Shown here: piece by piece, positions 17,309-51,920 of the stretch
How positions within the stretch are numbered: the stretch's first letter is position 1
How the letters are laid out: every line of letters starts with the position of its first letter
Source: an uncultured Actinomycetota bacterium
Lineage (GTDB): Bacteria; Actinomycetota; Actinomycetes; JAHEKZ01
NCBI GenBank assembly: GCA_963829525.1
Contig: CAWHIJ010000003.1
Coordinates: 1,056,001-1,120,000 of the forward strand
Length of the DNA stretch: 64,000 nt
Reading direction: 5' to 3'
The notes under the pieces: generated by a model
Database searches by the model: none
Told to the model about the DNA's origin: nothing
Seen by the model: the letters and a program-made list of their open reading frames with translations, nothing else
Made by a program: the position numbers and the translations under genes

Positions 17309-17381
17309 CGCCCCCGGCACGATTCGAACGTGCGGCCAACTGCTTAGAAGGCAGCTGCTCTATCCACTGAGCTACGGGGGC
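17309..17381 (-). tRNA. tRNA-Arg(TCT)
   Basis: GCCCCCG-TA-GCTC-AGTGGATA-GAGC-A-GCTGC-CT-TCT-AA-GCAGT-TGGCC-GCACG-TTCGAAT-CGTGC-CGGGGGC-G; no encoded CCA. Confidence 0.95.
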
Positions 17382-17555
17382 GGGACGTGCGGAATTCCTT
17401 GTGGGAAACCTGCTGGACCCTGCCGCGATCTGGTCGGATCGGGGCGGATCAAGTCTAGGGGGCGGACTTCGGCGCTGGTTTGGCCGCAGATGGGGTGTCA
17501 GGGAGCGATTTCGTGGCTCTGAGCCGGTAGTGTGGGCGCGGTTGAGTCCAGGTGT
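17373..17555. repeat. tRNA-facing element end, copy 1
   Basis: TACGGGGGC-GGGACGTGCGGAATTCCTTGTGGGAAAC...GGATCGGGGCGGATCAAGTCTAGGGGGC; homologous to 22523-22705, 24682-24737 and 51792-51920. Confidence 0.9.
17452..17457 (-). promoter_or_regulatory. Candidate -10 hexamer (TAGACT) driving tRNA-Arg from within the element end
   Basis: TANNNT conserved in other end copies (TACACT 22603-22608, TAGACT 51870-51875); no clear -35. Confidence 0.5.
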
Positions 17556-17579
17556 GGCGATCGGTGTGAGTGCGGGGGG

Positions 17580-18017
17580 TCAGGCAGCCACTTGTGGCGG
17601 TGACTGTTGTCGGTCGATGGCGCGCTGCCAGGTGTGGCGGGCCCAGGCGTTCTGGGCGAGGGCGGCCATCAGCACGATGACGGTCTGGTTGTGGAGACCC
17701 CAGGCGGGGAGTCGCCGGTTGTAGAAGGCGCGCTCGAACTGAGCGTTGAGTGACTCGGTGTCGGCCCGCATGCCGTAGACGCGGGAGTAGTCGGGGTCGG
17801 TCGGGGGTAGGACGCGCAGGTAGTCGCTGCGATTGAACTTGTGCGCCTCGTCCGTTTGCGTGGGGGTGAGCGGCTCCCACCAGTCGTGGATGTCGTCGGT
17901 GGTTCGGCAGGTCAGGGTGTGCCGGGCGTAGAACGCCCACGTCCCATCGGTCTTGCGGTCTCGTTTGGTCTGGTGGCGGGTGACTTCGACGAAGTCGAGG
18001 CTTCCGTCGAACTGCGG
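17580..18017 (-). pseudogene. C-terminal remnant of a DDE transposase (IS4/IS5-superfamily-like)
   Basis: Open frame of about 145 codons without its N-terminal part: ...YSRVYGMRADTESLNAQFE...AALAQNA; Y(2)R(3)E signature. Confidence 0.7.
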
Positions 18018-18163
18018 TCACGCGGCAGTAAGTGCATGACGGGGCGATCTCTAGTGCTGAAACTTTGATGCGAGGTTGGATGGCTCGAGAGGCCGCACCA
18101 ATTCGGGTTGACCTCCACCCTTCGAGGCCTTCTTCTGCGTATATGAGCGGAGGAAGGAGCCTG

Positions 18164-18700
18164 ATGAGCTCGGAGGCGTGGGCGGAGCTGCGGGATTTCG
18201 TTGCCGCGCGAGGCCTGGCGCTATCTCGGACGGCGTTCTTGTTGACTGGTAGTGAGGCTGCGGCCGAGGACTTGGTTCAGGACACGTATGTGGATGTGGT
18301 GCGGCGGTGGCGTCGGATCGATCATTCCAATCCTGAGCTGTATGTGCGTCGGATCATGTACAGCCGGTTTGTGGATGGATTGCGTCGTCGCCGCCTTCGG
18401 GACTGGGCATTCACCACTGGTGATGTTGAGAGGTTGCCGTCAGCATCGTCACCGGGTCCTGAGGCTGGCGTGGTGGATCGGTTGACGTTTGAGAGGGCAC
18501 TGCAACTGTTGACGCCGCGGCAGCGCGCGGTGTTGGTATTGCGTTTCTACGACGACCTGTCGGAGGCGCAGACGGCGGAAGCGATGAAGGTCAGCCGCAA
18601 CACGGTCAAGAGCCAGACGCGGCTGGCGCTCCGTCGACTGTGTGAGTTGGCGCCGGATCTGGTGCCGTCGGTGTCGGATCTGTCTGAGGGGGTGGGCTGA
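18164..18700 (+). CDS. ECF RNA polymerase sigma factor (SigE-family)
   Basis: AFLLTG..AAEDLVQD; LTPRQRAVLVLRFYDDLSEAQTAEAM..S.NTVKSQ; AGGAAGGAG RBS. Confidence 0.9.
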   Translation: MSSEAWAELRDFVAARGLALSRTAFLLTGSEAAAEDLVQDTYVDVVRRWRRIDHSNPELYVRRIMYSRFVDGLRRRRLRDWAFTTGDVERLPSASSPGPEAGVVDRLTFERALQLLTPRQRAVLVLRFYDDLSEAQTAEAMKVSRNTVKSQTRLALRRLCELAPDLVPSVSDLSEGVG

Positions 18701-18701
18701 C

Positions 18702-19411
18702 ATGAACACCCCGTTGCGGGACCGTTTCCAGCAGACCGCGATGAAGGTCCACGAGTTGGGCGACATCGACCGGGCGATCACCGTTGGCGTGGGACAGCAG
18801 GAACCGTACTGTCGCCATCACGACCGCGATCGCAGTAGCTGCGGTCGTCCTACTCGCCGCAGTGATCGTGAGCAGCCCGCTGAAAGGTGCCACCCCCGAA
18901 CCACTCCAACCACCCACCCCGACGCCAGTGTTTGGCTCAGACGTCAACGGCTGGCCGAGCACCGGGCACAACGCGCCAGGTTTCTACTCGCTCGACAACA
19001 AGATGTGCGGATCGATATCCAGGGGTGGCTACTGCAATGTCGGGTGGATGCACAACGGATATGGGTCCGGTGACGTCCAGATTTGGATGGAGGTACGTCC
19101 TGAGGATGGGGGCATCGCGGACGTTGACCCGGGGAGTGGATACCTCGAGAGGCGGCACCCGCGTGGTCGTCGCCGGGTACGAGGGGGTCCACCAAAGAAT
19201 CGCTGACGGACACGAAAGATGGATCGTCGTCATCGATGGACGCACGATCGCCATCGATCTCAAGGCAAAGCCCCGTACCAGCCGGGCGGACCTGGCCGAG
19301 GCCCACACCATCATCGACTCGATTCGCACGGCACCAACAGACAACGTCCTTAACGACCTCGGATACAAGCTCGTCTTCACCCTCACCAACAACGACTGGG
19401 ACTCAGGCTGA
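18702..19411 (+). CDS. Single-TM protein, putative anti-sigma factor (two frameshifts)
   Basis: Starts immediately after the sigma stop; TM AITTAIAVAAVVLLAAVIV; pieces in three frames. Confidence 0.5.
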
Positions 19412-20169
19412 TGTTGATACAAATAGTGAAGTTCGCCCTTCTTTGCACCGGCGTCGTGCTTGCCGGTGGGTGCTCATCCACCGCACAGGACAGCAACGCC
19501 AATGCAGCGGCGACGACGCCAACCGAGGTGCGCGCATCTGCGAGACCGAGGACAGCTTGCCCGACGGCGTGTTGCCCTTGCCACAGCCCAGCGGCGGCGA
19601 CGACTTCGCCGTCCTACCCGCGGGCCGCTACCAGGTCCCGATCAGCGACACTCTGGCCTACCAGATCGACCTGCCGCAGGGCACTTACGCGTACGACGGT
19701 AAGTACCTCGCCTTCGATCAGGCACGACCGCAACGAATCGCCGGCATCCTGTACGTGGATGAGGCAGGCGACGGGACGGGCGTCTCTCGCGAACCCTGCA
19801 CAAAGCAGGATGAAATCGTGCCGGCGGGGAAGACCTTGGCGGCTCGTCACCGCGATCACCAACCAGCCGATTCTCGATGTGAGCGAGCCCGTGACAGCCG
19901 AGCTCGGCGGAGCGCGGGGGCTCTACCTAGAGGTTCGGATCCCCAAAGACTACAACGCATCCCGCTGCGGTGATGGCGAGATTGGGCTGGTCGGACGTTC
20001 GGGAATGATCCGAAACGCGCTCCCCGGCTACGTCGGTACGTGGTGGGTCCTCAATGTCGACGGGGAACGGATTCTGGTCCAGCCGTACTGCCCCGGACCG
20101 TGCCCCGACAACTCGACCGAGCACCTTAACGAAGTGGCCGAAACGATCACCTTCACGAAGCTCGGTTGA
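19411..20169 (+). CDS. Hypothetical lipoprotein (frameshifted internally)
   Basis: Lipobox-like VLAGGC; middle part in another frame (LPAGRYQVP...). Confidence 0.55.
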   Translation: MLIQIVKFALLCTGVVLAGGCSSTAQDSNANAAATTPTEVRASARPRTACPTACCPCHSPAAATTSPSYPRAATRSRSATLWPTRSTCRRALTRTTVSTSPSIRHDRNESPASCTWMRQATGRASLANPAQSRMKSCRRGRPWRLVTAITNQPILDVSEPVTAELGGARGLYLEVRIPKDYNASRCGDGEIGLVGRSGMIRNALPGYVGTWWVLNVDGERILVQPYCPGPCPDNSTEHLNEVAETITFTKLG

Positions 20170-20320
20170 CGGTTCCGCCAACAAACGCCAGGAGACAGGG
20201 ACTCGGCGGAAGGCACTTCGAGGAGACGGCACATCGGCAAGGGCCTCCCGAGCCACAGGTGGCCTCGACCACGCCGCGGCGTCAGCACGTCATCAACCTA
20301 ACCCCCTTGCCGCATCATGG

Positions 20321-20410
20321 GTGGGGGGCGTCGAGCCAGGTGCCGGTGGGGGTCGGGGGGGGGGGGGGGGCAGATACTTGTGGCGGTACCTGTTGTCGGT
20401 CGATGGCCCC
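20321..20410. repeat. Degenerate copy of the transposase 3' end and element-end flank, with a poly-G tract
   Basis: ACTTGTGGCGGT..CTGTTGTCGGTCGATGGC matches about 17590-17620; GAG.CCAGGTG matches about 17545. Confidence 0.65.
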
Positions 20411-20560
20411 ACGGCCAGGTCTGACGGATCGAGAGAGTTGGCCGGGTCACAGGTGAACAAGACCATACGGTTGGCATAGCCCCACCGGACGGCACTTCGG
20501 GCGCATCGGTAACAGGGCGGCCTTCTGTCCCTTCTGACAAACAGTCCCTTGGCGGTGTGG

Positions 20561-21130
20561 TCAGCCGGTATGTGCGGACAGGCGCTTGCGCATGGTGACG
20601 AGTGGCACCGCGGTGCCACCCGCTGAGTCCTCCAGGTCCGCGATGGCCGTGAATCCCGCTGCCTCGTAGAGCGGTCGTCCCGCCAATGTGGACACCAACT
20701 CAAGCGTCCGGAATCCCTCCGCCGCTGCGTGGTCCTCGCAGGTCCGAAGCACGAGTCTCCCGACGCCGCGACGCACGTAACTCGGGTGGGTGTACATGGC
20801 GCGGACTCGGGCCGGGTCGGTTGCTGGGTCAAGGAGTGCGGAGTTGCGGCCGCCGGAGTGATCGCCGCCGTACATCGTGGCCCGTCTGCTCCACCCACCA
20901 CAGCCTGCGACGATGCCGCCGACCTCGACGAGGTAGTAGGTGCCGTCGGCAATGAGCTGTCGATCGATTCCCATGATGGCGTGACTCGAGGCGATCTGCG
21001 CGTCGTCGAGGAATCCCCGCTGGAGCACGTCGATGGCCAACTCGACCAACGGCGCCAGGCGGGACATGTCGTCGATGCGGGCCGGTCGGATCGTCAGGTC
21101 GTCCTCGGGAAGACGGTCAGTCTTGTTCAT
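20561..21130 (-). CDS. GNAT family N-acetyltransferase
   Basis: GCGGWS, ARVRAMYTHPSYVRRGVGR, TLAGRPLY. Confidence 0.88.
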   Translation of the reverse strand: MNKTDRLPEDDLTIRPARIDDMSRLAPLVELAIDVLQRGFLDDAQIASSHAIMGIDRQLIADGTYYLVEVGGIVAGCGGWSRRATMYGGDHSGGRNSALLDPATDPARVRAMYTHPSYVRRGVGRLVLRTCEDHAAAEGFRTLELVSTLAGRPLYEAAGFTAIADLEDSAGGTAVPLVTMRKRLSAHTG

Positions 21131-22113
21131 TTCGGTGGTCCCCACAGGTCCGTGCTCAGGTACTTCATCCCCGAGTCGGCCAGAACAATCGCCACGGTTT
21201 CCCCGGCCCCAGGTCCGATCAGCCACTGCTCTGCGGCGGCGAGACATGCGCCGGCTGAGAATCCGGCCAGGATGCCCTCGTATCGCGCAAGCCGTCGCGC
21301 GGCTTCCATCGCTTCGTCGTCGTTGACCGTGAGGTAGCCGTCGACAAGGTGCTCCTCGAGCAGCGGTAGGTCCGTCATTGCGTAGCCACCGCCCTGGATG
21401 CGGTGTGATGGATCGGACGGAGGTTGACCCGCCAATACGGGCGCACCGGCCGGTTCAACTACCAGACAGGTGATCGCCTGCCTCTGCTCCTTCAGAAACC
21501 GTGCCACGCCGGCAAAGGTGCCGCCAGTGCCCACGAAGTCGCAGAACATGTCGACAGCGCCGCCGCTCTGCGCCCAGATCTCGGCCGCCGTGCGGTCGTG
21601 GTGAGCGGACGCGTTACCCGACAGATGGAACTGGTCAGCGCGAAAGGCGGCCCGCTCTGTGGCGGTGCGCGCCGCAACTTGTTCGACGAGAGCAAGGTCC
21701 TCGCCCGTCACATGACCGTCAAGCGATCCGTCGCCCTGGTCGACCAAGATCACCTCGGCACCCAGTGCGCGCATCATCTGCTCCCGTTCGCGTGAGTTTC
21801 CGGCCGACATCACCGCGACGAACGGATAGCCCTTCACCGCGCAGACCACGGCCAGTCCCGTGCCCGTGTTTCCGCTCGTGAGTTCGACCACGGTCTGCCC
21901 CGGTTGCAGCCTGCCGGATGTCTCAGCGTCTTCGATCATCCGCAGAGCGATTCGGTCCTTCTTCGACCCACCCGGGTTGAGGTATTCCAACTTCGCCAGG
22001 ATGCGACCGTTCAAGCCGCGACCGATCCGGACCAACTCGACCAGCGGTGTGTTACCGATGCTGGTGAGGACGGAAGGATCGACGCCACGACCCATGGGGC
22101 CTTCAACGGTCAC
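21127..22113 (-). CDS. Cysteine synthase family PLP-dependent enzyme
   Basis: IGNTPLV, KLEYLNPGGSKKDR, TSGNTG, VGTGGT, IQGGG, ADSGMKYLST. Confidence 0.9.
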   Translation of the reverse strand: MTVEGPMGRGVDPSVLTSIGNTPLVELVRIGRGLNGRILAKLEYLNPGGSKKDRIALRMIEDAETSGRLQPGQTVVELTSGNTGTGLAVVCAVKGYPFVAVMSAGNSREREQMMRALGAEVILVDQGDGSLDGHVTGEDLALVEQVAARTATERAAFRADQFHLSGNASAHHDRTAAEIWAQSGGAVDMFCDFVGTGGTFAGVARFLKEQRQAITCLVVEPAGAPVLAGQPPSDPSHRIQGGGYAMTDLPLLEEHLVDGYLTVNDDEAMEAARRLARYEGILAGFSAGACLAAAEQWLIGPGAGETVAIVLADSGMKYLSTDLWGPPK

Positions 22114-22399
22114 CGCTCTAATGTACGGCCCTGCTGCCCGGGCCCCCCTGGGTTTCTAGCGCTGGCAGACCACGCGTGCCGCTGGGTATAGCTCGGTGTC
22201 GAGGGGGAACGCCCTTATGCGCCACTCGCGATCACACGTCCCAGTCCTCGAGGCGTCCGGTGATGTCTGTGTCGTTCACTTCCCGCGAGGGCGTGGCGTT
22301 CGAACCCCATGCGGGCCACCGGCTCGTCGCCGCGGCCATAGGTCCACATTTTTCCTGGCTGAGAGGCCTGCTCGCAGGGTACTGGACGCGTCGAGGGGA

Positions 22400-22705
22400 A
22401 TCCGATCGGACAGCGCTTGTGCTTCCGGATCCGGTTAGATCCACTTCCAAAGCTCCCTCGCGCCCTAGGGAACTCACTGGTCAAGTGGTTCGCCTGGGGT
22501 TTCACGCACGTCCTACGGGGGCTACGGGGGCAGGACGTGCGGCAATTCCTTGTGGGAAACCCCTTGGAGCCTGCCGCGACCTGGTCAGATCGGGGCGGAT
22601 CAAGTGTAGGGGGCTGGATTCTGAGGTGCTTTGGCCCCAAGGCGAGTGTCAGCGGGTCGTTTCTCGACCCCCGGATCCGCGAGCGGGCGCGGCTGAGCCA
22701 GGTGC
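22400..22705. repeat. Junction 2: distal end of element 1, doubled core, tRNA-facing end of element 2
   Basis: CGCACGTCC(22505-22513) TACGGGGGC TACGGGGGC A GGACGTGCG(22533-22541). Confidence 0.9.
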
Positions 22706-22806
22706 CTTGGCGGCCCGCCTTTGGCTTCGATCCGATGTCGAGTTGTGGAAGCGGAGCCGCGTGATTGGCTGAACTCTTCCGGCGTGCGATCATCAGCCGG
22801 CCGCCA

Positions 22807-23555
22807 TCATGACGTCGGCGAGTGAGTCGACGCAAGCAGCTGGTCAGCCAGGTGGACGGCGATCTTCCGCTGGGCACGTGATGGTCGGACGACGCGGTCG
22901 CCGCTCGACACGATGAAACACCCGTGGCTCCCATCGTGCGGGACGATCGCCACCTCGACGCTGGTGGGTAGTCCGTCTCGGTCGACATCGACGACGTGGC
23001 TGTCAAGCCGTACCTGACCGTCGGACCCCAGCGCCGGCACCCGGGGATCCGTCGGAGCCTTCGACGCATAGCGACACGAGGAGACTCCGAGAACGAGTGC
23101 AATGCGGCTGGCGATCGCCGATGAGACCGTGGTGTCTCCCGCTGCGTTCTTCGCCAGAGTTGCGGTCTCGAGCACCCCGTCGAGGTATCCGGCCTCACGG
23201 CTTGCTCGCGCAGCCTGTCGTCGTCCCCACAGGGCGAGCTCGGTTGCGGCTGCCCCGATGACGACGAGCAGCACAGCCGCCTCGACCTCGTCCGGGTTGT
23301 CGATGGTCAAGGTCTGGTATGGCTGCGTGAGAAAGAAGTCGAACCAGATGCCCGCGCCTAGGGCGGCGACGAGCCCGGCAACGCGGTCGCCCGCCGCCGC
23401 GACGGCGAGCACGATGACGACTAGACGAGAACCGCCGTGGATGAGCTGATTGACTCGCGGGCCAGAGCCAGAAGAGCGGCGACCCCGAGTGGTGCTGCGA
23501 GGGCGAACCAGATCAGTCGCGTCCGCGGGATGGTGGCCGATGTTTCGGTGAGCAT
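22807..23555 (-). CDS. DUF4118 (KdpD TM-like) domain protein, frameshift near 23425
   Basis: GLVAAL...WFDFFLTQPYQTLTI; N-terminal TM in another frame. Confidence 0.75.
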
Positions 23556-23690
23556 GGGACCCTCCAAGCCGTGTCCGTATTCCGGACATCCCCAGTGTGA
23601 CGCGTTCATCACCCGGCGGCGCAATTCTTGACGTCATCCTTACGGGCGCGTCTCCACGGCGAACCCTCGAGCCGACAAGAGACTGGCCGC

Positions 23691-24648
23691 ATGCTGCGCA
23701 TGCAGGTGTTCGTCCCCACAGAGCTGACCGACGAGGTCACCGCAGTCTTCACAAACGAGCCGGCCGTCAGTGGACTGGCCGTGATGCGCGGGGCTGCAGT
23801 GCGTCCCGCCGGTGACGTGGTGCTGGCCGAGGTCGCCCGGGAGGCGGCGAACGGCGTGATCGACATGCTCCACGACCTCGGAGTGCACCGACGCGGCTCG
23901 CTCCACTCGAGCAGGTCAACGCCTGGATCTCGCGTGAGGGCCGGAGGCGGAGACCAGCGCACCCGGAAGCAGCGCGGACGCCGTCGCGCGGGCCGACGTG
24001 ACTCATCGCGCGTACGCGGACGCCGAGCTGAACTGGACCTATCTCGGCTTCATGACTCTCGCCACGCTGATCGCGGGAATCGCGATCGTGCTCGACTCGC
24101 AGGTCCTCGTCATCGGTGCGATGGTCCTCGGTCCCGAGTTCGGTCCGATCGCCGCGCTGGGGGTCGCTCTGGTTCGTCGCCGTTACCACCTGTTGCAGCT
24201 GTCGACTCGAACACTGCTGATCGGCTTCGCAGTCGCAATCGCTTTGACGACGCTTGCCTCGTTGCTGGGACGCTGGCTGGGATGGATCGAGCCCTGGCAG
24301 GTCAGCGGGGCTCGACCGCTCACCGCCTTCATCTACAGCCCGGACAAATGGTCATTCATCGTCGCGATCGTCGCTGCCGCCGCCGGTGTGCTGTCGTTGA
24401 CCTCCGAGCGAGTGGGGGGCCTCTCGGGAGTCTTCATCTCCGTGACCACGGTGCCCGCTGCAGGCAACATCGCTCTCGGCCTGGCGTTCGGCCAGTGGAA
24501 CGAGGTGCGCGGCAGTGCCGCGATGCTGGCCATCAACCTCACCGGCATGGCGCTAGCCGGTTGGGCCACGCTTGCCCTCCAGCAGGCGGTCTGGCACGGG
24601 GTGGTGTCGAGGCGTCGACGTCGAAGGCCTGCCGCGGGCACCGACTGA
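23691..24648 (+). CDS. DUF389 domain membrane protein, frameshift near 23910-23940
   Basis: VAREAANGVI; IGAMVLGPEFGPIAAL; GVFISVTTVPAAGN. Confidence 0.8.
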
Positions 24649-24672
24649 TCGTTCTCATTCGCCCACGGAACA

Positions 24673-24737
24673 CGCACGTCCAACGGGGGCGGGACGTGCG
24701 GAATTCCTTTGTGGGAAAACCGTTGGACCCTGCCGCC
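24673..24737. repeat. Junction 3: inverted ends around a single core
   Basis: CGCACGTCC AACGGGGGC G GGACGTGCG GAATTCCTTTGTGGGAAAAC..GGACCCTGCCGC. Confidence 0.9.
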
Positions 24738-24799
24738 CGGAAGCACCGTGGGCGACTGGTCGGATCAATGTCGTTCAACTCCAGGGGCCGGGCCCTTCG

Positions 24800-25859
24800 C
24801 CTGGGATCGGCAGATGCTCCGGAGTTCCGCAAGCCCACGATCGAGCAGCTCGCGACGGTGATCAAGCCGATCTGGGAGGAGCTCGTCGGTGGCGGGGTAC
24901 GCCCACGACCGGCTGATGGAGATCTGGGCCGAGCACCGCCCGGACGTGATCGTCTCCGACAACGTGGTGGGCTTCGCGGCGGTGCCCCTGGCCGGTGTGC
25001 CGTGGGTTCGGATGGTCTCGGCGAACCCACTGGAGATGGAAGCCCCCGACCTGCCACCGCCGTTCTCGGGTCTGCCCACAGACGACCCACGCGGATGGGC
25101 GGAGTTCACGGCGGAGTACCGCCGACTGCACGACCCGTCGATCGCGGAGCTCAGCGAGCTTCAACGTGTCGGTGGGCGCCGACCCTTTGCCCGAGGGCCA
25201 CTTCCAGTACAACTCGCCGTACGCCAACCTGTACCTGTTCCCGGAGGTGATGGACTACCCGCGGCCGACCCGCTCGACTCCACGTGGACACCGCCTCGAC
25301 ACCACGGTTCGCACCGGCGAGGAGCCCTTCGACGTCGACTCGGTGCTGCCGGGTGACGGCAAGGTGGTCTACCTGTCGATGGGGAGCCTGGGCTGCAACG
25401 ATCTCGGAGCTGATGCAGCGACTCATCGACGCGCTCGACCAGACCCCCCACCGGGTGATCGTGAGCATGGGCCCGCTCGAGGACCAGATGGAGCTCGGGG
25501 AGCGGATGTGGGGCGGGAGTTCCTGCCGCAGCCGTCGATCCTGCCGCAGTGCGACCTGCTGATCACCCACGGCGGCAACAACACGGTGACCGAAGGGTTC
25601 AACTTCGGACTGCCGATGATCGTGCTGCCCGCTGTTCTGGGACCAGTACGACAACGCGCAGCGGGTGCAGGAGCGGGGCTTCGGTCGGCGGCTCGACACG
25701 TACGGGGCCACGCAGGACGAGATCGTCACGGCGGTGGACGAGCTGCTCGCCGACAGCGCCCTCAAAGCCCGGATGACGGAGATCTCCCGCCAGCTGCAGG
25801 CCGCCCCCGCCCAGGAACGGGCGGCAGATGTCGTCGAGCAGCTGGCCGACGGCACGTGA
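24800..25859 (+). pseudogene. GT1/MGT-type glycosyltransferase, 5'-truncated and frameshifted
   Basis: RPDVIVSDNV, VYLSMGSLG, FLPQPSILPQCDLLITHGGNNT, WDQYDNA; no start found after the element end. Confidence 0.75.
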
Positions 25860-25995
25860 CTACCTAAGAGAGTCCGGTGGACGCGTGAGGAGTCGCTAGC
25901 GGTTCTCCTCGTCGATCACATCGAGGACCGGGCAGCCCAGGGCGGCGGTGGAGCACTGCCGGGGAGTGGCATCGCATGCCCCGACAGCGCGACCG

Positions 25996-26457
25996 TCAAT
26001 CCAAGCAGAACTCGTTGCCTTCTGGGTCGGTCATCACGATGTGCCCGGCGCTCATCGGGGGTTCGGGCTCGTAGCGGCGAACCCGCGTCGCCCCCAGCGA
26101 GACGAGTCGGTCGCACTCGACCTCCAACGCCGCCATCCGCTCCTCCCCCTCAAGCTCGGGAGCCGCCCGAACGTCGAGATGCACACGGTTCTTGGCGGCC
26201 TTGTCCTCGGGCACCTGCTGGAAGAACAAGCGTGGTCCATGTCCATCGGGGTCCTCAATCGCCGATCGCGTGTTGCGCTGGTCTTCCGGTACGCCGACCC
26301 TGGCCAGGAACTGATCCCACGCGGCCAGTGGGTCAGTGCCCCCCGGCAGGGAAACGCCGGGCGGACCTGGGTGGACGTAGTCCAAGACATCGCGCCAGAA
26401 CGATGACAGCGCTCGCGGATCGTGGGCATCGAAGGTGACCTGGAGATGACGGCTCAT
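25996..26457 (-). CDS. VOC (glyoxalase-like) family protein
   Basis: QVTFDAHDP..L..FW; PRLFFQQVPEDK..KNRVHLDV; DPEGNEFC. Confidence 0.9.
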   Translation of the reverse strand: MSRHLQVTFDAHDPRALSSFWRDVLDYVHPGPPGVSLPGGTDPLAAWDQFLARVGVPEDQRNTRSAIEDPDGHGPRLFFQQVPEDKAAKNRVHLDVRAAPELEGEERMAALEVECDRLVSLGATRVRRYEPEPPMSAGHIVMTDPEGNEFCLD

Positions 26458-27756: not shown

Positions 27757-27821
27757 CCCCGCGCTTGGATAGGCCGTGGGCGCCAGACGGAACAAGGAAC
27801 AAGGAACATAGGTGAGAGACG

Positions 27822-33697: not shown

Positions 33698-33698
33698 C

Positions 33699-43737: not shown

Positions 43738-43929
43738 AGCGGCTGTGAACCCTGGCTAACTCCGGGGCTGCGCTTGCCTATTGAGAGGGACCATACATCC
43801 CGGCGAAGGCGTGGAGCCGTCTGCAGAGTTCAGGGCCATCCCAGGCATCGACCGGCCCGTGAGGCGCCCTTGAGGACTTGAAGAATCCATCATGTGCGAA
43901 GATGCTGTGGTGATCGGACGTGGACGCTG

Positions 43930-44273
43930 ATGGCCAGACCACTGCACCAGGCCAAAGCCGAGTTCTTCCGGACTCTGGGCCACCCTGCGCGGATCCGGGT
44001 CCTTGAGCTCTTGAGCGAGCGAGACCACGCGGTGCACGAGCTGCTCGAGGCAATCGAGATCGAGCCGAGCAACCTCTCCCAGCAGCTGGCCGTCCTGCGC
44101 CGCGCCGGTCTCGTCGATCCAGCGACGGGAGGCGGCGGCGGTCGTCTACGCGGTCGCCGTCTCCCGAGGTCCGCGACCTGCTGCTGGCCGCCCGGGCGAT
44201 CCTCGCTGCAGCTGCTCGCCGACCAGGACCAGCTCAGGCGCAGCTGCGTAGCACCCGGGGGAGCCGGCGATGA
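43930..44273 (+). CDS. ArsR/SmtB regulator (Rv0081-like), frameshifted
   Basis: [25 protein letters not shown]; [13 protein letters not shown]. Confidence 0.88.
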
Positions 44274-44763
44274 GCCTGCGCGGCTGCTCGCCTCATCCGC
44301 GGCCGGGCCGGATCGCCGAGCCCGCGCCCGATGCACCCGACACCGCATGCCGTGACGCCACCGGGCACTGTGCCGGCAGCGTGCAGGTCCGGCACGTCGA
44401 CGCCGGCTCGTGCAACGGCTGCGAGATCGAGGTCGCGGCTGCCTTCGGGCCGGTCTACGACGCCGAGCGCTACGGCGCCCGGCTGGTGGCCTCGCCCCGG
44501 CACGCGGACGCGTGCTGGTCACCGGGGTGGTCACCCAGAACATGCTCGAGCCGCTGCGCCGGACGGTCGAGGCGACGCCCGAGGCCGCGGCGTCGTGGTC
44601 GCGATGGGCGACTGCGCGCGCAACTGCGGCGTGTTCGCCGGCGCGTACGGCGTGGTCGGTGCCGGTCGGCGACGTCGTCGACGTCGACCTCGAGATGCCC
44701 GGGCTGCCCGCCGGAGCCGCGACGCGATCGTCGAGGCGCTGCGCACGGTGACCGGTACGGTGA
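44270..44763 (+). CDS. NuoB/HycG-like Fe-S small subunit (Rv0082-like), frameshifted
   Basis: [36 protein letters not shown]. Confidence 0.85.
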
Positions 44764-46798
44764 CCCGGTCGCGAGGTCGGGCTGCTGGCTCAGCTGCGTG
44801 CTGGCGGTCGCTCGCCGTCGGCTGGTGCCGTTCTGCTCGACGCCGGCGGCGCTGCGCACCGCTGGCGCTGGGCCGTCTCGGCGGCGTCGGCATCGTCGGA
44901 GCCGTGACTGGTGCGCTGGCCTGGTCGGCGGCACGTGGCACGCGTTGCCGCTGCCGACCGCACTCGCCGTTCGCCCCGTTCGCCTTCGCCCCGGGCCGCT
45001 TGGGCGGCTTCTTCATGGTGGTGGTCGGCGCGGTCGGGGCGGTCGCCGTCGGTCTACGCGATCGGCTACGTGCACGGACCGTCGGCCTCGCGCACCGCGT
45101 GGATGGCGTTCGCCGTCTTTCTGCCTGGCGATGCAGTTGGTGCCCGCGGCCGCGGACGCCGTCTCGTTCCTGCTCGTCCTGGGAGGTGATGGCGGTCGCG
45201 CTCGACCGTCCTGCGTGCTCACCGACCACGCCCGCGGCGCGAGGTGCGCTCGGCCACCCTCTGGTACGCCGTCCATGACGCAGCTCAGCTTCCTGCTGCT
45301 GCTGGTCGGCTTCGCGCGTCCTCGCGCCGCGGCGGGCGGCACCGCGTTCGCGGCGATGCGCGGCGTCGACCGCTGCCTCGGCCGGCGCCAGCGTGGCCTT
45401 CGTGCTGCTCGTCGCTCGGGTTCGCCACCAAGGCGGGCATCGTGCCGCTGCACGTCTGGCTGCCCCGGGCGCACCCGGAGGCGCCGAGCCACGTGTCGGC
45501 GCTGATGAGCGCGGCGATGGTCAAGCTCGGCGTCTACGGCGCTGTGCTCGTCGTCGTCCGGCTGCTGCCCGGCGGCCCGCCTGGTGGGGGCTCCTGCTGC
45601 TCGGCGCTCGGCGCGCGTCTCGGCGGTCTTCGGCATCCTGCAGGCCTCGGTCGCCACCGACCTCAAGCGGCTGCTCGCCTACTCCACCACCGAGAACATC
45701 GGCCTGATGTTCATCGCGCTCGGGCGTCGGACTGCTCCTGCGCCCGACGGCGCGGTCGAGCCGGCGTCGCCGACGTCGCCCTCGTCGCCTGCCTGCTGCT
45801 CGTCGTCGGCCACGCCGCGTTCAAGACCGCTCTCTTCCTCGCCGCCGGCTCGGTGCTGCACGCGACCGGTCAGCGGGACCTCGACCGGCTCGGCGGCCTC
45901 GTGCACGCATGCCGTGGACGGCCGCCGCCTTCGGCGTCGCCGCGCTCGGCGCGGCCGGGCTGCCGGTCACCGCCGGCTTCGTCGCCGAGTGGGTGCTGCT
46001 GCAGGCGCTCATCCACGGCGCGGGCAGGCGCACGGATCGCCTCGTCGCCGTCGTGATGCCGGTCGCGGTGGCGCTGGTGGCGCTCACCGCGGGGCTGGCA
46101 CTGATGACTTCGTCAAGGCGTTCGGGATCGCCTTCCTCGCCCGGCCGCGCAGCGCCGAGGCCGCAGGCCGCGCACGAGAGCCGGCCCCGACGATGCGCGT
46201 CGCCATGGTGCACCGCGGCTGCCTGGTCGTCGTGCTCGGGCTCGTCCCCGGCCCGCGTGGCTCGGCTGGCGGCCACTGCGGCGGCGGCCTCGACCGGTGT
46301 CGGGGCCGTCGGGCCTGCGGCGGCATCGACCTCCCGTGCGTCGGCGCGGTGCTCGACCCGGTCGCGCTGGCCCTGCTGGCCGCTCGCGATCGCCGTTCCG
46401 GTGGTCGTCGTCTCGGCGCTGGCCTCGCGACGCCGGCGCCCGCCGCGCGGTCGACCTCGCCTGGGGCTGCGGCGGGGTGCGGGTCAGCCCGCGGATGCAG
46501 TACACCGCGACGTCCTACGCCGAGCCGCTCGTGCGCGTCTTCGACGACGCGCTGCGCCCGGAGCCGCGACGTCGAGGTGACCCACGCTGGCCGAGTCCCG
46601 CTACCTCGTCGAGCGCGATGCAGTTCCGGCAGCAGCGTCGGCGACGTCGTCGAGACGCGCCTCTACCGGCCGGTCATCGCGGGCGCCGACCGGCGTGGGC
46701 GTCGCTCGCCCGCCGGATGCAGAACGGCAGCATCCACCGCTACCTCGGCCTACTCGTTCGTCGCCTGCTGGTCGTGCTCGCTGGTGGTGTCGCTGTGA
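44760..46798 (+). CDS. hyfB: HyfB-like proton-translocating membrane subunit (Rv0083-like), many frameshifts
   Basis: [50 protein letters not shown]. Confidence 0.8.
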
Positions 46799-47760
46799 AC
46801 GTCGAGCGCTCGCCGTCCTCGTCGTCGTCCAGGTGATCGTCATGGTCGTCGTCGCGCCGCTGCTCGTCGGCCTGATGCGCCAGGTGCGCGCCCGGCTGGA
46901 GGGCCGCGTCGGCGCCGGGATCCTGCAGCCGTGGCGCGACCTGCGCAAGCTGCTTGCGCAAGGAGCCGCTCAGGCCGCGGGCACCAGCTGGGTCCACGCC
47001 CTCGGCCCGGTCGTCCTGGTCGCCTCGAGCCTGCTGCTGTGCGCGCTGGTCCCGCTGGTCGGCGACCGTCGCGCTTCGCCGCTGGTGCCCGACGACCTGT
47101 TCGTCGTCGTCTCGGTGCTGCTGGTCGGCACCGTCGCGCTGGCCCTGGTCGGCCTCGACGCCGGCACCGCGTTCGGCGGCATGGGCTCCAGCCGGCACAT
47201 GACGATCGCCGCGCTCGTCGAGCCGACGGTGCTCGTCGCCGTCTACGCGCTGTCGGTGCCGGTCGGGTCGTCGGCGCTCTCGCAGATCGTCGACGGCGCG
47301 CCTCGACGACCCGGCCAGCGTCGCCGCCGCCGGTCAGCCTGCTCGCCGTCGTCGCGCTGGCGATCGCCGTCATCGCCGAGACCGGCCGCCTGCCGGTCGA
47401 CAACCCGCGACCCACCTCGAGCTGACGATGGTCCACGAGGCGATGGTCCTGGAGAGCTCGGGCCGCGACCTCGGCCTGGTCGAGCTGGGCTCGTGGCTGC
47501 GGCTGGCCGTGCTGCTCGGCCTGCGTCGGCAACCTGCTCGTCCCTGGGGGGTCGGCCACGACGTCACCGCCGGTGCCTGCTCGTGCGGCGTCGTCACGCT
47601 CGTCGTCAAGCTCGCCGTGCTGGGCGCCGTTGCTCGCCGCCGTCGAGGTGTTCCTCGCCAAGCTGCGGCTGTTCCGGGTTCCCGAGCTGCTGGCCGGCTC
47701 CTTCGTGCTCGCCTTCCTCGCCGTGACCGCCTCCTACCTGCGTGGCAGGGTAGCCGATGA
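46795..47760 (+). CDS. hycD: HycD/HyfC (NuoH-like) membrane subunit, frameshifted
   Basis: RARLEGRVG..QPWRDLRKL, FGGMGSSR, ETGRLPVDN, MVHEAMVLE. Confidence 0.82.
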
Positions 47761-48423
47761 CCGACGACCGTCTGTCGCCCAGCTCATCGGCATCGCGCCG
47801 GCGTACTCCTGCTCGTCGGCCGTGCTCCTCGTCTGGCGCCGCCACTGGTCGCCGCCGTCGCGGCTGCTCGCGCTGCAGGGCGTCGCCCTCGCCGCGTCTG
47901 GTCGCGGTCATCGGCGATCGACGAGCGCAGCGCCGAGCTCTCGGCGTCGCGGTGCTGCGTGCTGGTGTTCAAGGCCGTCGTGCTGCCGGCGTGCTGGCTC
48001 GCACGCGGCCGCGGGCGCGAGCACGCGCGAGGCAGCGCCGCTGATCAACACCACCGCCGTCGCTCATCGGCGCTGCGCTGCTCACCGTGCTCGCGTACGC
48101 TGGTGAGCCAGCCGCTGGCGGCGCTCGGCGACCGGCCCGACCATCGCGGCGGTTCCCGTCGGCGTCGCGCTGGTGCTGTATCGGCTTCCTGCTGCTGGTC
48201 ACGCCGGCGTCACGCGATCTCGCAGGTCGTCGGATTCCTCGTGCTGGACAACGGCATCGCCGCGTGGCGTTCCTCACCGCCGGAGGCGTCCCGCTCGTCG
48301 TCGAGCTCGGCGTCTCCCTCGACGTGCTGCTCGTCGTCCTGATCCTGTACGTCCTGACGGGCCGGATCCGCAGCGAGTTCGGCGACGCCGACCTCGACGA
48401 CCTGAGCGGAGCTGCGCGACTGA
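47757..48423 (+). CDS. hyfE: HyfE/HycP-like membrane subunit, frameshifted
   Basis: [33 protein letters not shown]. Confidence 0.78.
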
Positions 48424-49878
48424 TGGCCGCCCTCGTGCTGCTTCCCACTGCTGGCCTGCCTCGCTGCTCGCCGTCGGCACGCGCCGCCGTCCGGTCGGCC
48501 GGCGCTCCACGGTTCGCCGGCGTCGCTGCGGCGACTGTCGGTGCTGGCCGTCCGGCGTGGCCCTGGTGCGTCGGCCGTCCTCGGCGGGCCGATCACCGAC
48601 CGCGCTCGGCGGGCTGCTGCGCGTCGACGCCCTGTCCGCCTACATGCTGATCGTCGTCGGGGCGGTCGGGCTGACCGCGACCTGGGGCGGCCTCGCCGAT
48701 CGACGCGGACGCCACCCGCGACGCGCGTCCTACCCGACCCTGATCGCGCTGTTCCTTGGCGGCGATGTCGCTGGCCGTGCTCGCCGACAACCTCGGCGTG
48801 CTGTGGGTCGCCGTCGAGGCGACCACGATCGCCACGGCCTTCCTGGTGGGCCACGCCGCAGCCGAGGTCGCTCGAGGCCGCCTGGAAGTACGTCGTCCTG
48901 GGTTCGGTCGGGGTCGCCATCGCCTTCCTCGGGATCGTGCTGCTCTACGCCGCGACGTTGGCTGCCGGGACCGCCGACCCTGTCCTGGTCGCAGCTCTCG
49001 ACGCCGGCGCCGCCGCTCGACCCGTCGCTGGTACCGTGGCCGGTGCGCTCGCCGTCCTCGGGTTCGCCACCAAGGCCGGGCTGGCCCCGATGCACAGCTG
49101 GCTCCCCGACGCGCACAGCCAGGCGCCCGCGCCGGTCTCCGGCCTGATGTCCGGCGTCCTGTTGTCGGTAGCGTTCTACGCCATCCTGCGGGTGCAGGCG
49201 GTCGTCGACCCGGTCGTCGGGCCAGGGTTGATGCGGGGAATGCTCGTCACCGCCGGCTTGCTCTCGCTCGCGATCGCGGCGCTGCTGATCCTGCGCCAGC
49301 GCGACCTCAAACGGATGCTCGCCTACTCCAGCATGGAGCACATGGGCCTGCTCGCACTGGCGGCAGCCATCGGCAGCACCTTGGCGCTCTCGGCTGCGTT
49401 GCTGCACGTGCTCGGCCACGGGCTGGCCAAGTCGAGCACCTTCGTCATCTCTGGTCGGGTGCTCAGCACCGAGGGCACCACCACGCATCGGCGTCAATGC
49501 GCACGCTGCTGGCTCGCCGGCCGGCCGTCGCCATCCCGTTCCTGGTCGGGATGCTCGCGCTGCTCGGGCTGCCCCCGTTCAGTCTTTTCTTCTCCGAGGT
49601 TGGCATCATCGTCGCCGGCGTCCAGGAGGACATGGCGTGGGCTGTGGCGCCAGCGGTCTTGCTGCTGCTCGTGCTCTTCGCTGCTCTCGGCCGGCACACC
49701 GTCGCCATGCTCTTCGGCGACACCTCCTATGAAGGCGACGACCAACCCGACCGGCGTCCGCACGGGCCTAGGCTTCCGATCCTGCTGGGCACTGGGAACC
49801 ACGGCAGTCATCGGCTTTGCCTCCGGATCGTTCGCGACGCTGCTGACCGAAGCTGCCAATGTGCTCGGGGGTGCCTGA
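48423..49878 (+). CDS. hyfF: HyfF/HycQ-like proton-translocating subunit, frameshifted
   Basis: [44 protein letters not shown]. Confidence 0.82.
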
Positions 49879-51355
49879 TGCGCGAGATCGTCGAGGTCAC
49901 GTCCGACACGTTGGCTGCTGAGGTCACGTCGCGGCTGGCCGACGGGTTCCGTGTCGCAATGGTAAGCGGCTCGCGAGGACGCTGACCGCCTGCGCGTCGT
50001 CTATGTTCTCGTGCGCAGTCGTGACGACCACCGTGTCGAACTAAGCCTTCCGGTCTCCAAACATGATCCGGTGGTTCCGAGCCTGGCCGCCTGTCGACTA
50101 CTCCCTTGGACGGTTCGAGCGTGAGGTGCGCGACCTGTACGGCATCATCCCAGCCGACCACCCGCTGCCCCAACGGCTGGTACGCCACGGCCACTGGCCA
50201 CGCGGCTATTACCCGATGCGCCGCAGCGCCGACCCGACACCGAGCTTCGACCTCGACGTCGGCTCCTTCCCCTTCCTCGAGGTTGCTGGCGACGGCGTGT
50301 ACGAGATCCCGGTCGGTCCGGTGCACGCCGGCCTCATCGAGCCAGGACACTTCCGGTTCTCCGTCGTCGGCGAGACGATTCTGCGGCTGAAGGCGCGACT
50401 GTGGTTCGTCCACCGGGGTATCGAGAAGCTCTTCGAGGGGCGCCGGCCGGGCGACGGAATCGAGTTGGCCGAGCGGGTCAGCGGTGACACCGCTGTCGGT
50501 CACACACTCGCGTACGTCATGGCAGTCGAGGACGCCGCCGGGATCGAGGTCACCGAGCACGACCGGCTGGTTCGCGCTCTGCTGCTGGAGCTCGAGCGGC
50601 TGCACAACCACATCGCGGACCTAGGTGCACTTGCCAACGACGTCGGCTACGGCATCGTCAACGTTCACGCGCAACGAATTCGTGAGCAGTTGTTACGCCT
50701 CAACAAGGTGACCACGGGGCACCGGCTGCTGCGTGGTGGGATCTCTATCGGCGGGGCGCGGGTGCTTGCGCTGCCCGACGTCGGACAGGTCGCTGAGGTG
50801 GCTGCTGCTGCCGCCGAGCTCGCCGCCATCACGTTGGGAAACTCCACGGTTCGCGACCGGTTTGCCGGAACGGCGGTGCTCGTGACCGAGACGGCGAAGA
50901 GTCTTGGCGCCCTCGGCTACGTGGCGAGGGCTTCTGGCATCGACGTCGATGCCCGCAACGACCACCCGTTCGTCGACCTCGGGCCAGGCTTTCAGGTCGT
51001 GCTCGAAAGCGGCGGGGACGTGCTGGCTCGCTACCTCGTCCGTCTGCGCGAGGTAGCGGTGTCGGCGGGGTTGATCGAGAGCCTGAGCACGCGGCTGGCT
51101 GGGAACTGTGGGAGCGGCACCCGTGCTGAGACGACGTCGATCGGCTCGGGCCTTGGGCTCGTCGAGGGGTGGCGGGGAACGATTGCCCACCGCGTCGAGC
51201 TGAACCGGACCGGCGAAGTGGCCCGGCTCAAGATCGTCGACCCGTCCTTCTTCAACTGGCCAGCCCTCCCAGTTGCATTGGCCGACACGATCGTTCCTGA
51301 CTTCCCACTGGTCAACAAGAGCTTCAACCAGTCTTATGCGGGCAACGACCTGTGA
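49878..51355 (+). CDS. hycE: HycE/HyfG-like large subunit lacking the NiFe cysteines (Ehr type), frameshift near 49970-50090
   Basis: PVGPVHAGLIEPGHFRF, HRGIEK, ERVSGD, DPSFFNW, DFPLVNKSFNQSYAGNDL. Confidence 0.88.
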
Positions 51356-51669
51356 CCGGGCGGATTCTCCTTCCGGATCGGGCCATCTCCACTTCCACAG
51401 TGCACCTGCAACCCGGGTAACCCGCAGGTCAGGTGAGGCAGTGGCAGTCTCACGAATGCTCTAAGGGGGCAACAGGGCCGGAAAATCGTTGGAGGACATC
51501 GCTCGGATCGCCGACGTATCAGTGTCGAGGGCCAACGTCGGCTGCGTGACCACAGCTGGTCGTCCAGTAGTCCTACCGACGATGTGGGAAGGAACCCCGT
51601 CGATCACCTGCGCCGAGATAGCTGACCTCATCAACCGCCAAGGGCCGCGCTCAGCGGTCAATTCCGGTC

Positions 51670-51920
51670 AGATCCGGTCGGGCCTTCCGGGCTTCCGGAT
51701 TCGAGTGAATCCACTCCCACGGTGCCTTTCACCCATGGCGACCACGCAGGTCAGCAGTGGTCCGTGGAGTTTTACGCACGTCCTACGGGGGACGGGGGCG
51801 GGACGTGCGGGAATCCTTGTGGGAAACCGGCTGGACCCTGCCGCGAACCGTTCGGATCGGGGCGGGGTAAGTCTAGGGGGCGGCGTTTGACGCCGGTTCG
51901 GCCCTGATGGAGCTGTCAGG
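51670..51920. repeat. Junction 4: distal end of element 3, doubled core, tRNA-facing end of element 4
   Basis: CGCACGTCC(51775-51783) TACGGGGG ACGGGGGC G GGACGTGCG(51801-51809); both flanks homologous to junction 2. Confidence 0.9.

Follow-up and report, generated by a model that had tools for sequence, protein, structure and literature searches.

We analyzed a 64,000-nucleotide (nt) stretch of the genome of an uncultured Actinomycetota bacterium (contig CAWHIJ010000003.1, positions 1,056,001 to 1,120,000; G000:C3:1056001-1120000), hereafter the window. The genome comprises 2.96 Mb with a G+C content of ~65%, and is represented by 3 contigs. In our labels, G000 is the source genome, other G numbers are genomes, L numbers are loci and P numbers are proteins. 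The window contains a stack of cargo cassettes that begins directly at the 5' end of the gene for tRNA-Arg(TCT). We consider it probable that the stack is composed of copies of a site-specific cut-and-paste DNA transposon family, which lands before nt 1 of particular tRNAs and duplicates nt 1-8. The element ends, the 8-bp duplication, the nt 1 register, the two-gene module, the predicted folds and the empty sites documented below form the basis of this interpretation. Read on the tRNA strand, the order of an element is the right end, optional cargo, a gene for a protein of recombinase fold, a DDE transposase gene, a left end of ~200 bp and the tRNA. Judging from their sequences, the cassettes of G000 look like decayed or non-autonomous copies, none of them self-mobile; we regard them as decayed because their transposase remnants are truncated to differing extents. 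An earlier prediction, made from the letters of the window alone, had proposed a site-specific transposon family that repeatedly inserts at the tRNA 5' end and leaves the tRNA intact. This proposal is now supported by a Tn5-fold gene at the left end, by a tip located at nt 1 wherever there is flank, by an exact duplication at locus L186 and by empty sites in sister genera.

The target, tRNA-Arg(TCT), is intact and lies at 17309..17381 on the minus strand, nt 1 being position 17381 (Rfam, 71.6 bits; the ARAGORN call, 17306-17382, has one base extra on the 5' side compared with Rfam). The sequence GGGACGTGCG begins at 17382, immediately past nt 1, just as the original prediction had it. Farther from the tRNA there are three junctions between cassettes. 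At 22505-22541 the order is CGCACGTCC T ACGGGGGC T ACGGGGGC A GGACGTGCG, with the core present twice; at 24673-24700 it is CGCACGTCC A ACGGGGGC G GGACGTGCG, with the core present once; and at 51775-51809 it is CGCACGTCC T ACGGGGG ACGGGGGC G GGACGTGCG, again with two cores, one of them short. The core, ACGGGGGC, is the reverse complement of nt 1-8 of tRNA-Arg(TCT). The three inverted-tip junctions, the correspondence of the core to the tRNA and its doubling at two of the three had all been claimed beforehand, and the junctions read base for base as stated. The inverted tip measures 9-10 bp in the window. Taken alone, the 9-mer is not significant (43 matches with at most one mismatch in the window vs 60.8 expected), and an exact copy at 53877 is unrelated to element ends. 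Conservation of the ends extends ~100-130 bp inward, well past the tip, and the first 45-640 bp of the elements align with one another.

A search of the whole assembly with the end consensus, which the original prediction had suggested, revealed no scattered copies: a 28-nt left-end pattern occurs 7 times in the genome, and 7 of 7 occurrences are at two tRNA-Arg genes. Using nhmmer profiles built from the left and right ends of G000 and related genomes, we found 7 left ends (E ≤ 2e-16), 4 terminal right ends, 1 internal right-end-like stretch and 2 weak matches genome-wide. Upstream of tRNA-Arg(TCT), left ends start at 17382, 22532, 24691 and 51800, and a fifth, preceded by neither a right end nor a core, starts at window-equivalent position 71809 (window-equivalent coordinates are positions past 64000, with the same numbering carried on beyond the window). 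We numbered the cassettes at this tRNA E1-E5 outward from it, E5 being wholly outside the window. The sizes of the first four had been estimated at ~5.1, 2.2, 27 and >12 kb and were found to be 5.1, 2.15, 27.1 and about 20 kb. A second stack with two left ends and at least 2 elements is located 1.66 Mb away at tRNA-Arg(CCT) (C3:2732133). Its core is ACGAGGGC, which corresponds to nt 1-8 of tRNA-Arg(CCT) itself, so that each stack in G000 bears the core of its own tRNA. The same type of junction recurs beside tRNA-Arg(TCT) and tRNA-Arg(CCT) in related genomes and metagenome contigs. Moreover, contigs from a public sequencing run, possibly the source sample, span the tRNA/left-end border and, over 22446-22742 with 0 mismatches, the E1|E2 junction. 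Multiplied cores also occur elsewhere: L113 has a double core (8+9), G019 has a triple one with one or two extra bases, and L016 is similar.

It had also been expected that extension to the right of the window would reach a final right end followed by the native flank. Neither was found. All that is left of a right end there is a truncated piece at window-equivalent 75203-75220, and E5 extends to this point (near 75.2 kb). Synteny puts the native upstream neighbors of G004 and G001 at window-equivalent ~134 kb and ~155 kb, respectively. The island upstream of tRNA-Arg(TCT) may thus measure ~117 kb, with junctions visible only in its first ~58 kb.

The position of the left end relative to the tRNA is retained across genomes. 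The metagenome and metagenome-assembled genome set consists of 84 loci, and in all 35 of those that include a tRNA it lies downstream on the same strand, with the conserved left tip touching nt 1. In other orders, 4 of 4 loci have a transposase gene that ends ~200 bp before a same-strand tRNA-Arg(CCT), with CCGCACGTCCC directly before nt 1. In the phylum-wide sample of 401 genomes, the tRNA check covered 22 published loci, and at 15 of them a tRNA (Ala, Lys, Phe or Arg) lies 174-804 bp further downstream on the same strand. Overall, the targets are Arg(CCT), Arg(TCT), Lys(TTT), Phe(GAA), Ala(TGC), Val(TAC) and Thr(TGT), with Val(TAC), Thr(TGT) and Ala(TGC) serving distant members of the family. 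The target varies by clade, and so do the cores, which are GCCCCCGT, GCCCTCGT, GCCCCAGT or GCCTCTAT at tRNA-Arg(CCT) and GGGCCTCT or GGGCCCCT at tRNA-Lys(TTT). At one locus, L055 (G002:C3, ~12343), the left end touches what looks like a decayed tRNA, and 3.3 kb off, at 8929-9003, there is an intact tRNA-Arg(CCT); this target has possibly been displaced or duplicated.

A complete element was found at L186 (genome G082), where 4,971 bp (14848-19818) precede tRNA-Lys(TTT). It carries three unknown open reading frames (ORFs), a recombinase-like gene and a transposase gene, and its termini are imperfect inverted repeats. Both flanks have GGGCCTCT, i.e. nt 1-8 of tRNA-Lys, which makes an exact 8-bp duplication. 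A TAGACT box with 13 further bases remains upstream of the element, resembling the native promoters of empty sites. A short element of 2.24 kb with both ends and a near-full-length transposase gene is present at tRNA-Arg(TCT) of G002. The comparison with empty-site relatives, also suggested by the original prediction, was informative as well: the sister genera G004 and G001 are both empty at tRNA-Arg(TCT), where they have unrelated upstream DNA with its own TACACT box. The distribution of the family is patchy, namely 14 of the 20 genomes in the order-level sample and 21 of the 401 in the phylum-wide sample (the latter count includes two unpublished genomes, G107 and G139, which were used only for that count).

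The gene next to the left end was recognized from the alignment of E1 with two elements of the second locus. These share 640 bp, which from ~200 bp inward represent the 3' part of a gene reading towards the tRNA. The longest copy in G000, P0001 (279 aa), has no Pfam match, and in NCBIfam it aligns only far below threshold, with the C-terminal portions of the models for IS1182 and IS1380 transposases. Full-length relatives of ~470 aa are unnamed and have no precomputed Pfam domains. None of the NCBIfam insertion sequence (IS) families matches above the cut-off; sub-threshold matches to the IS1182, IS1380 and IS5 models (E 0.004-0.16) fall at corresponding positions. The AlphaFold2 model, based on 21 sequences, has a mean predicted local distance difference test (pLDDT) value of 85.5. 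In a Foldseek search against PDB, ranks 1-2 are Tn5 transposase, matched over the whole length (E 5e-7, probability 1.0), and rank 3 follows at E 0.075. Across the 21 sequences, D248 and E410 never vary, and conservation of D146 is at least 90%. The model places D146 in the first long strand, D248 just after strand 4 and E410 in a late helix; the segment that separates D248 from E410 includes a beta-rich insertion, an arrangement like that of Tn5. A Y-x2-R-x3-E stretch presumably resembles the IS4 signature. A profile search of 1.84 billion representatives yielded 1,399 clusters (50% identity) at E ≤ 0.001, including 243 at E ≤ 1e-30. The neighbors in the atlas are unnamed clusters; in 5 of 30, roughly every second member has DDE_Tnp_1. 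From the model we conclude that the left-end protein is a predicted IS4/Tn5-type DDE transposase beyond the reach of present curated libraries. One family member, P0095 (898 aa), has ~460 extra N-terminal residues without a Pfam match and is possibly a fusion with the partner protein described below.

In G000 there are three transposase copies, covering residues 163-467, 269-467 and 326-461 of 467. Matches in the 14 genomes of the order are likewise almost all fragments that end at the C-terminus and have varying starts. Such graded fragments imply that the part of the gene on the left-end side is kept, while the inner part is lost to varying depth.

The transposase gene is regularly accompanied by a second gene. 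At L004, it is preceded by a 321-aa ORF with a Phage_int_SAM_1 match. More generally, 27 of 28 loci have a recombinase-like gene immediately before the transposase gene, the exception being L078 (hand-counted loci with a transposase match starting at residue 1-5 and at least 300 bp upstream). We compared 15 of the partner proteins with the Xer of G000 by hhalign and obtained 95.7% probability and E 1e-8 over 268 columns. The AlphaFold2 model of the partner (pLDDT 89.8) has 65 PDB matches at E ≤ 0.001 in Foldseek, led by XerA, lambda Int, XerD and Cre and also including IntI and the Tn1549 integrase. YopR, MrpR and SroF appear at ranks 27, 46 and 49. The catalytic residues of Xer, which we take to be R, K, H, R, H/W and the nucleophile Y, are mostly replaced in these 15 sequences. 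The position of the TGARISE arginine is occupied by H, T, Q or F, those of two histidines by R (or another residue) and E, and that of a third histidine by L, I or C. Around the tyrosine there is L, F or I, and the second arginine is retained in most sequences, not all. As modeled, the partner is a protein of recombinase fold without the catalytic residues. It is most simply seen as a DNA-binding subunit, acting on the ends or on the tRNA gene. Co-folding of the transposase with the partner, based on our own alignments, was graded as weak support at a score of 0.35 (best control, 0.03). This mark was reached by 58 of 80 solved complexes and by 2 of 110 mismatched pairs, but only 7 of those 80 reached it with a score of 0.60 or less, and we counted the result for neither side; at least 88% of contacts are shared between runs, and the partner pLDDT is at least 83. 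G000 has no partner homolog (best E 0.29). With neither an intact transposase nor the partner gene, the stack in G000 is now inert unless these are supplied in trans. A distant two-gene module (30% identity) occurs on plasmids, at L072 (Streptomyces) and L073 (Mycobacterium kansasii pMK12478). There, the transposase copies are annotated as hypothetical and overlap an upstream gene annotated as "site-specific integrase" or hypothetical; no tRNA was found within 3 kb of either plasmid copy.

Based on the predicted fold and the duplication, the following mechanism may be proposed. The DDE protein would cut at the inverted tips and join the element to a staggered cut across tRNA nt 1-8. Repair of the stagger would double the 8 bases, one copy completing the tRNA and the other staying with the displaced native promoter. 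The recombinase-like protein would act as a DNA-binding partner and possibly as the target selector. Since the element parts the tRNA from its promoter, the left end would have to drive the tRNA; it would supply both a promoter (a TAGACT or TAAAAT box ~70 nt upstream) and a leader in place of the displaced ones. As every insertion would leave a complete tRNA 5' end again, newcomers could land repeatedly at the same spot and push older copies outward, giving rise to a stack. Such a regenerated target would account for the copy nearest the tRNA being the best preserved at the TCT locus. Doubled and tripled cores would be excision footprints, formed when the flanks of a departed element are joined again; as such they may be an indirect sign of the hairpin-intermediate cut-and-paste mode of IS4/Tn5. 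Older copies would lose both genes by deletion to varying depth and end up as cassettes consisting of ends and cargo. Deletions that also remove a junction would fuse neighboring cassettes; the piece of transposase gene inside E1, the additional right end of E3 and the junctions missing after E4 and E5 are in keeping with this.

The left end is a putative promoter region. It has a conserved CCCCTAGACT or CCCCTAAAAT box ~70 nt upstream of the tRNA, and a short hairpin comes next. By eye, we likened the TAGACT box to the actinobacterial -10 pattern. At the Rfam gathering threshold there is no RNA in the left end, and two tRNAs are the only matches in the window. When 33 aligned left ends were analyzed with RNAalifold, the outcome was no more than a weak stem of 6 pairs, formed by invariant bases. 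The hairpin, ~40-60 nt upstream of the tRNA (e.g. 17432-17456), occupies the same place in all left ends. Its stems, compared by eye, are clade-specific (CGATC..GATCG, GCCC-GNRA-GGGC or GTCGC..GCGAC), and one second-locus copy shows a two-sided change.

The proposed transposition by DDE chemistry has to be weighed against a number of observations that speak against it. First, the assignment of the transposase rests on the predicted fold, because Pfam has no relevant match in 5 full-length and 10 distant members and the transposase profile has 0 matches at E ≤ 10 among solved-structure sequences. Second, G000 has no intact transposase, and the sole full-length copy in the order, that of G002, has two stops. 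Third, right ends are scarce. Motif and inverted-repeat searches of the short flanks of L004-L007 did not reveal any, nor did the right-end profile (nhmmer) in the 8.4 kb upstream of the gene pair at L074. A right end together with a duplicated core is known from only one intact element beyond the clade (L186) and from the short element of G002, whose outer core is one base off that of the tRNA. Fourth, the tRNA is not always there: 7 of the 22 phylum loci have none in the available flank, and L086 and L092 have none in >5 kb downstream. Fifth, neither an E. coli-type promoter nor a terminator was detected in 17250-17650. Finally, neither a transposition event nor a circular or excised form was observed, and the public runs gave short contigs only. 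Joints in these runs link paralogous left ends, and the best run holds 0.28 of the sampled words.

The layout of the junction, 9-bp inverted arms around a 10-bp spacer, is also that of a simple core site for a tyrosine recombinase, and this adds weight to the leading alternative. It holds that the protein of tyrosine-recombinase fold is the real enzyme and that circles integrate by site-specific recombination at the tRNA 5' end. The element site would then consist of the right arm, an 8-10 bp core and the left arm, and the Tn5-like protein would be an accessory or a passenger. The gene is indeed present in 27 of the 28 informative loci, its product has the fold of Xer, lambda Int and Cre, and one member has a weak Phage_integrase match (E 0.009, below cut-off). 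Nevertheless, we regard this alternative as unlikely. The main argument in favor of DDE chemistry is that precise site-specific recombination would leave a single core, whereas the cores observed include doubled and tripled ones in which 0-2 bases are added or missing. Furthermore, the Xer catalytic positions are not conserved in the partner apart from the second arginine of most sequences, the DDE triad is invariant or nearly so, and the tRNA-side arm of the target is unlike the element arm (4 of 10 positions, hand-counted).

It might also be argued that the left end is simply a promoter-leader module of the tRNA and that the stack grew by duplication and homologous recombination, without any transposition of cassettes. 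The left end does sit where a tRNA promoter would, its TAGACT box is conserved, and there are real duplications in the stack (E3/E5, 1.1 kb at 92%; E5/F2, 1.6 kb at 82%). However, the sister genera have a different native upstream region, and the same tip is found before seven tRNA species in different lineages. Right ends are conserved over ~120 bp and inverted relative to the left tip, and a transposase gene is attached. At L186, moreover, the native promoter is displaced by exactly one element plus 8 bp. These observations make the promoter-module explanation quite improbable. That the junctions are assembly artefacts of a repeat is hardly credible, for although the 3-contig assembly was produced by an unknown method and repeats of 100-640 bp are present, the same junction types recur in many independent assemblies and the public-run contigs mentioned above span both the tRNA border and the E1|E2 junction.

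Transposition into the tRNA 5' end thus being the preferred explanation, there remains the choice of target. TAGCTCA is found at nt 8-14 in nearly all targets (L166 has TAGCCCA). The same box is present in 19 of the 46 tRNAs of G000, of which only two are occupied. Apart from a single base, the first 30 of tRNA-Arg(CCG) are those of the occupied tRNA-Arg(CCT), but the CCG gene is empty in the 5 genomes examined (G000 and four relatives). Consequently, target choice either needs more than the first 30 bases or is partly historical. Perhaps the dead recombinase is a protein selector that reads TAGCTCA at nt 8-14 together with clade-specific bases; this plainer version is well conceivable, if somewhat short of an even chance. 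In a more exotic version, the guide for the transposase and the dead recombinase would be an RNA, either mature tRNA or tRNA hybridized to the gene that encodes it. This we consider a long shot, as is the associated idea that the 5' end of the RNA-DNA hybrid determines where the DNA is cut. An RNA guide would explain why seven tRNA species with differing first eight bases are all hit at nt 1 and why tRNA-Arg(CCG) is empty despite its likeness to tRNA-Arg(CCT). The protein selector is the more likely of the two.

The composition of the individual cassettes illustrates both decay and cargo. Boundaries of E1 (17382..22513, 5.1 kb) were defined by sequence and nhmmer. Its left end (17382..17511, plus strand; nhmmer E 7e-34) consists of the tip G+GGACGTGCG, two TTCC..CAC repeats, the hairpin and the TAGACT box, which is 71 nt upstream of the tRNA on the tRNA strand. 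The remnant of the Tn5-like transposase at 17583..18011 on the minus strand reads towards the tRNA and covers about residues 325-467 of 467 (tblastn, 94% identity to P0004; alignment with the second-locus copies). An internal fragment at 20321..20427 resembles the 3' end of the transposase gene (positions 2222-2328 of the query, window 18100-22480), and E1 may be two fused cassettes. According to Pfam, its cargo includes an extracytoplasmic function (ECF)-type sigma factor, a GNAT acetyltransferase and a pyridoxal phosphate (PLP)-dependent enzyme; as a cassette, this cargo was not found in 19 related genomes, which have weak paralog matches only. The right end at 22390..22513 (plus strand; nhmmer E 4e-23) is conserved over ~120 bp and terminates in ...GGGGTTTCACGCACGTCC. 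It is followed by the doubled core, two copies of TACGGGGGC (22514..22531), corresponding to tRNA nt 1-9 on the other strand. E2 (22532..24681, 2.15 kb) codes for DUF4118 and DUF389 proteins and lacks a transposase remnant, and the single core A+ACGGGGGC (24682..24690) marks its boundary with E3.

E3 (24691..51783, 27.1 kb; ends by sequence and nhmmer) is probably a fusion of several cassettes, as its sequence suggests. Its cargo, assigned by Pfam, comprises fragments of a glycosyltransferase, Abhydrolase_9, DUF2252 and a sulfatase, as well as an amidohydrolase and antiporter/hydrogenase-like genes. Over 1,077 bp, the start of E3 shares 92% identity with that of E5 (24816-25888 vs window-equivalent 72279-73351). 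An extra right-end-like stretch is located at 51361..51454 (plus strand; nhmmer E 5e-13), ahead of the right end proper at 51670..51783 (plus strand; nhmmer E 5e-17) and a doubled core with two bases missing, TACGGGGG+ACGGGGGC (51784..51799). Positions 44000-49000 inside E3 have 74-75% G+C vs ~65% in the rest of the window and a strongly negative AT skew; this stretch encodes Proton_antipo_M and Complex1/NiFe-hydrogenase-like proteins.

E4 (about 20 kb; 51800..64000 in the window and on to window-equivalent ~71808, where the left end of E5 follows) has neither a right end nor a core on its far side. Its cargo includes a CAAX protease, an M24 peptidase, DUF1254/DUF1214, Abhydrolase_9, a LuxR-type regulator and DUF2252. 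Other cargo of the stacks identified by Pfam is an amine oxidase and a 1,137-aa cadherin/RTX-repeat protein. Several cargo proteins match only part of the Pfam model and look truncated. The amine-oxidase region of E5 is 82% identical over 1.6 kb to the F2 element of the second stack (L001 9471-11085 vs L002/L003).

On two metagenome contigs, segments of this cargo are found in different cassette surroundings. The 33.2-35.3 kb segment of E3 is found at L135 (84% identity) directly behind a left end, and the 75.3-75.7 kb segment is found at L099 (94% identity) directly behind a transposase remnant. At L099, a frame resembling OrfA of the IS3 type (920-1200, assigned by eye) comes right after the transposase remnant in place of the left end and looks like a secondary insertion into it. 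L108 2158-4504 is 82% identical to G000:C3:430254-432583, a region far from both stacks, and may represent captured host DNA or a paralog. In L074, which belongs to the same clade as G000, an apparently intact gene pair is adjoined by at least 8.4 kb of upstream oxidoreductase, hydrolase, dehydrogenase, acetyltransferase and peptidase genes. Since no right end separates this cargo from the gene pair, autonomous elements probably carry cargo between the right end and their own two genes, as far as sequence can tell. Gene-less cassettes could possibly be moved in trans by a cognate transposase.

Several known kinds of element were considered as possible identities and rejected. The original prediction had called the stack integron-like. 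This comparison did not hold, as there is no intI beside the site: the gene beyond the tRNA codes for a universal stress protein, and all PF00589 matches lie elsewhere. Instead of attC sites, the cassettes have left and right ends of 100-130 bp with inverted tips around a tRNA-derived core, and the regenerated target is sufficient to explain the stack. A tRNA island with a tyrosine integrase was rejected because Pfam reveals no integrase in or beside the stacks and because the duplication comprises nt 1-8 at the 5' end. Likewise rejected was a recombinase inside the stacks, as Pfam analysis of ORFs near all the ends gave ordinary cargo only. The tyrosine recombinases of G000 (two Xer-like, one by tRNA-Pro and one broken) and its single resolvase are all located away from the stacks, and the same is true of every PF00239 match. 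A 410-aa tyrosine integrase (G000:C3:497373-497930) near tRNA-Pro(CGG) (498133-498207) looks like part of a classical tRNA-linked island. Xer/dif-type modules do not fit either, for the arms are unlike a dif site and the element has its own enzyme. Finally, IS110/bridge-RNA elements were discarded, since there is no such gene and inverted ends are present.

The closest relatives by predicted fold are IS50/Tn5 and other IS4-type elements. The element protein matches Tn5 transposase over its whole length, including D-D-E and the beta-rich insertion, and the element is likewise bounded by terminal inverted repeats and duplicates 8 (possibly 9) bp of its target. Unlike these elements, its transposase has neither Pfam DDE_Tnp_1 nor an above-cut-off NCBIfam IS match, the insertion is strictly site-specific at tRNA nt 1, a second protein of recombinase fold is encoded, and the cargo reaches tens of kb. 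Classical tRNA-integrating islands and prophages use an active tyrosine integrase and duplicate the 3' part of the tRNA. They resemble the present element in using a tRNA as the landing site, keeping it intact and forming tandem cargo stacks; however, the element duplicates 5' nt 1-8, its recombinase-like protein has no catalytic residues, and it must supply a promoter. Mobile insertion cassettes (MICs), or transporter IS, such as MIC231 of Bacillus cereus have IS ends around passenger genes. E2, E3 and E4, with one or both IS-type ends around passenger genes and no transposase remnant, are similar, but the cassettes here appear to be decayed autonomous cargo elements, given the graded transposase remnants. 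For the proposed binding role of the partner, YopR, MrpR and SroF of SPbeta-like phages, which presumably bind DNA without recombining it, are a precedent among its structural matches, although they are phage repressors and not known as transposon parts.

Tn7-like transposons insert site-specifically beside an essential conserved gene without damaging it, by means of a dedicated target selector, at attTn7 or next to a tRNA, and generate a 5-bp duplication. The element, too, inserts site-specifically without harming the gene, and a separate protein may choose the target. It differs in having a Tn5-like transposase rather than TnsA/TnsB/TnsC, in having a partner of tyrosine-recombinase fold, in entering the 5' end within the first bases of the gene and not downstream of it, and in duplicating 8 bp vs 5 bp in Tn7. 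A Pfam scan of 58 ORFs from the G000 stacks and the intact elements, without a search by name, gave no TnsA/TnsB/TnsC-type families. Tn7-like transposons are also described as accumulating elements, cargo and islands by repeated insertion at one site (PMC11014353). Overall, the element works like Tn7 with a selector, stacks like tRNA islands and has gene-less copies like MICs, yet it is a member of none of these groups. The nearest functional parallel among the abstracts that our literature search returned is provided by Dada DNA transposons of fish, which insert sequence-specifically into tRNA and small nuclear RNA (snRNA) genes (PMC8869645). The likeness concerns the insertion habit; Dada elements are eukaryotic and have multicopy targets, whereas the target here is a single-copy tRNA that stays functional.

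The full-text literature search, judged at the level of abstracts, returned no bacterial DDE transposon aimed at tRNA 5' ends. Together with the lack of a Pfam or NCBIfam family, this agrees with the view of the original prediction that the system had not been described. If our interpretation is correct, there is a sizeable transposase family without a Pfam or NCBIfam model, comprising 1,399 clusters and present in ~5% of a one-phylum sample. It would have a host-compatible habit, of which the same abstracts contain no description in bacteria: landing in the first bases of a single-copy tRNA, the gene being rebuilt by the duplication and its promoter supplied by the element. Combining a Tn5-like enzyme with an inactivated tyrosine recombinase would represent a new way of choosing a target. 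Repeated landing of this kind would offer a mechanical explanation for hypervariable islands upstream of tRNA genes, and the compact two-protein insertion of cargo at one defined harmless site would be of interest to genome engineering.

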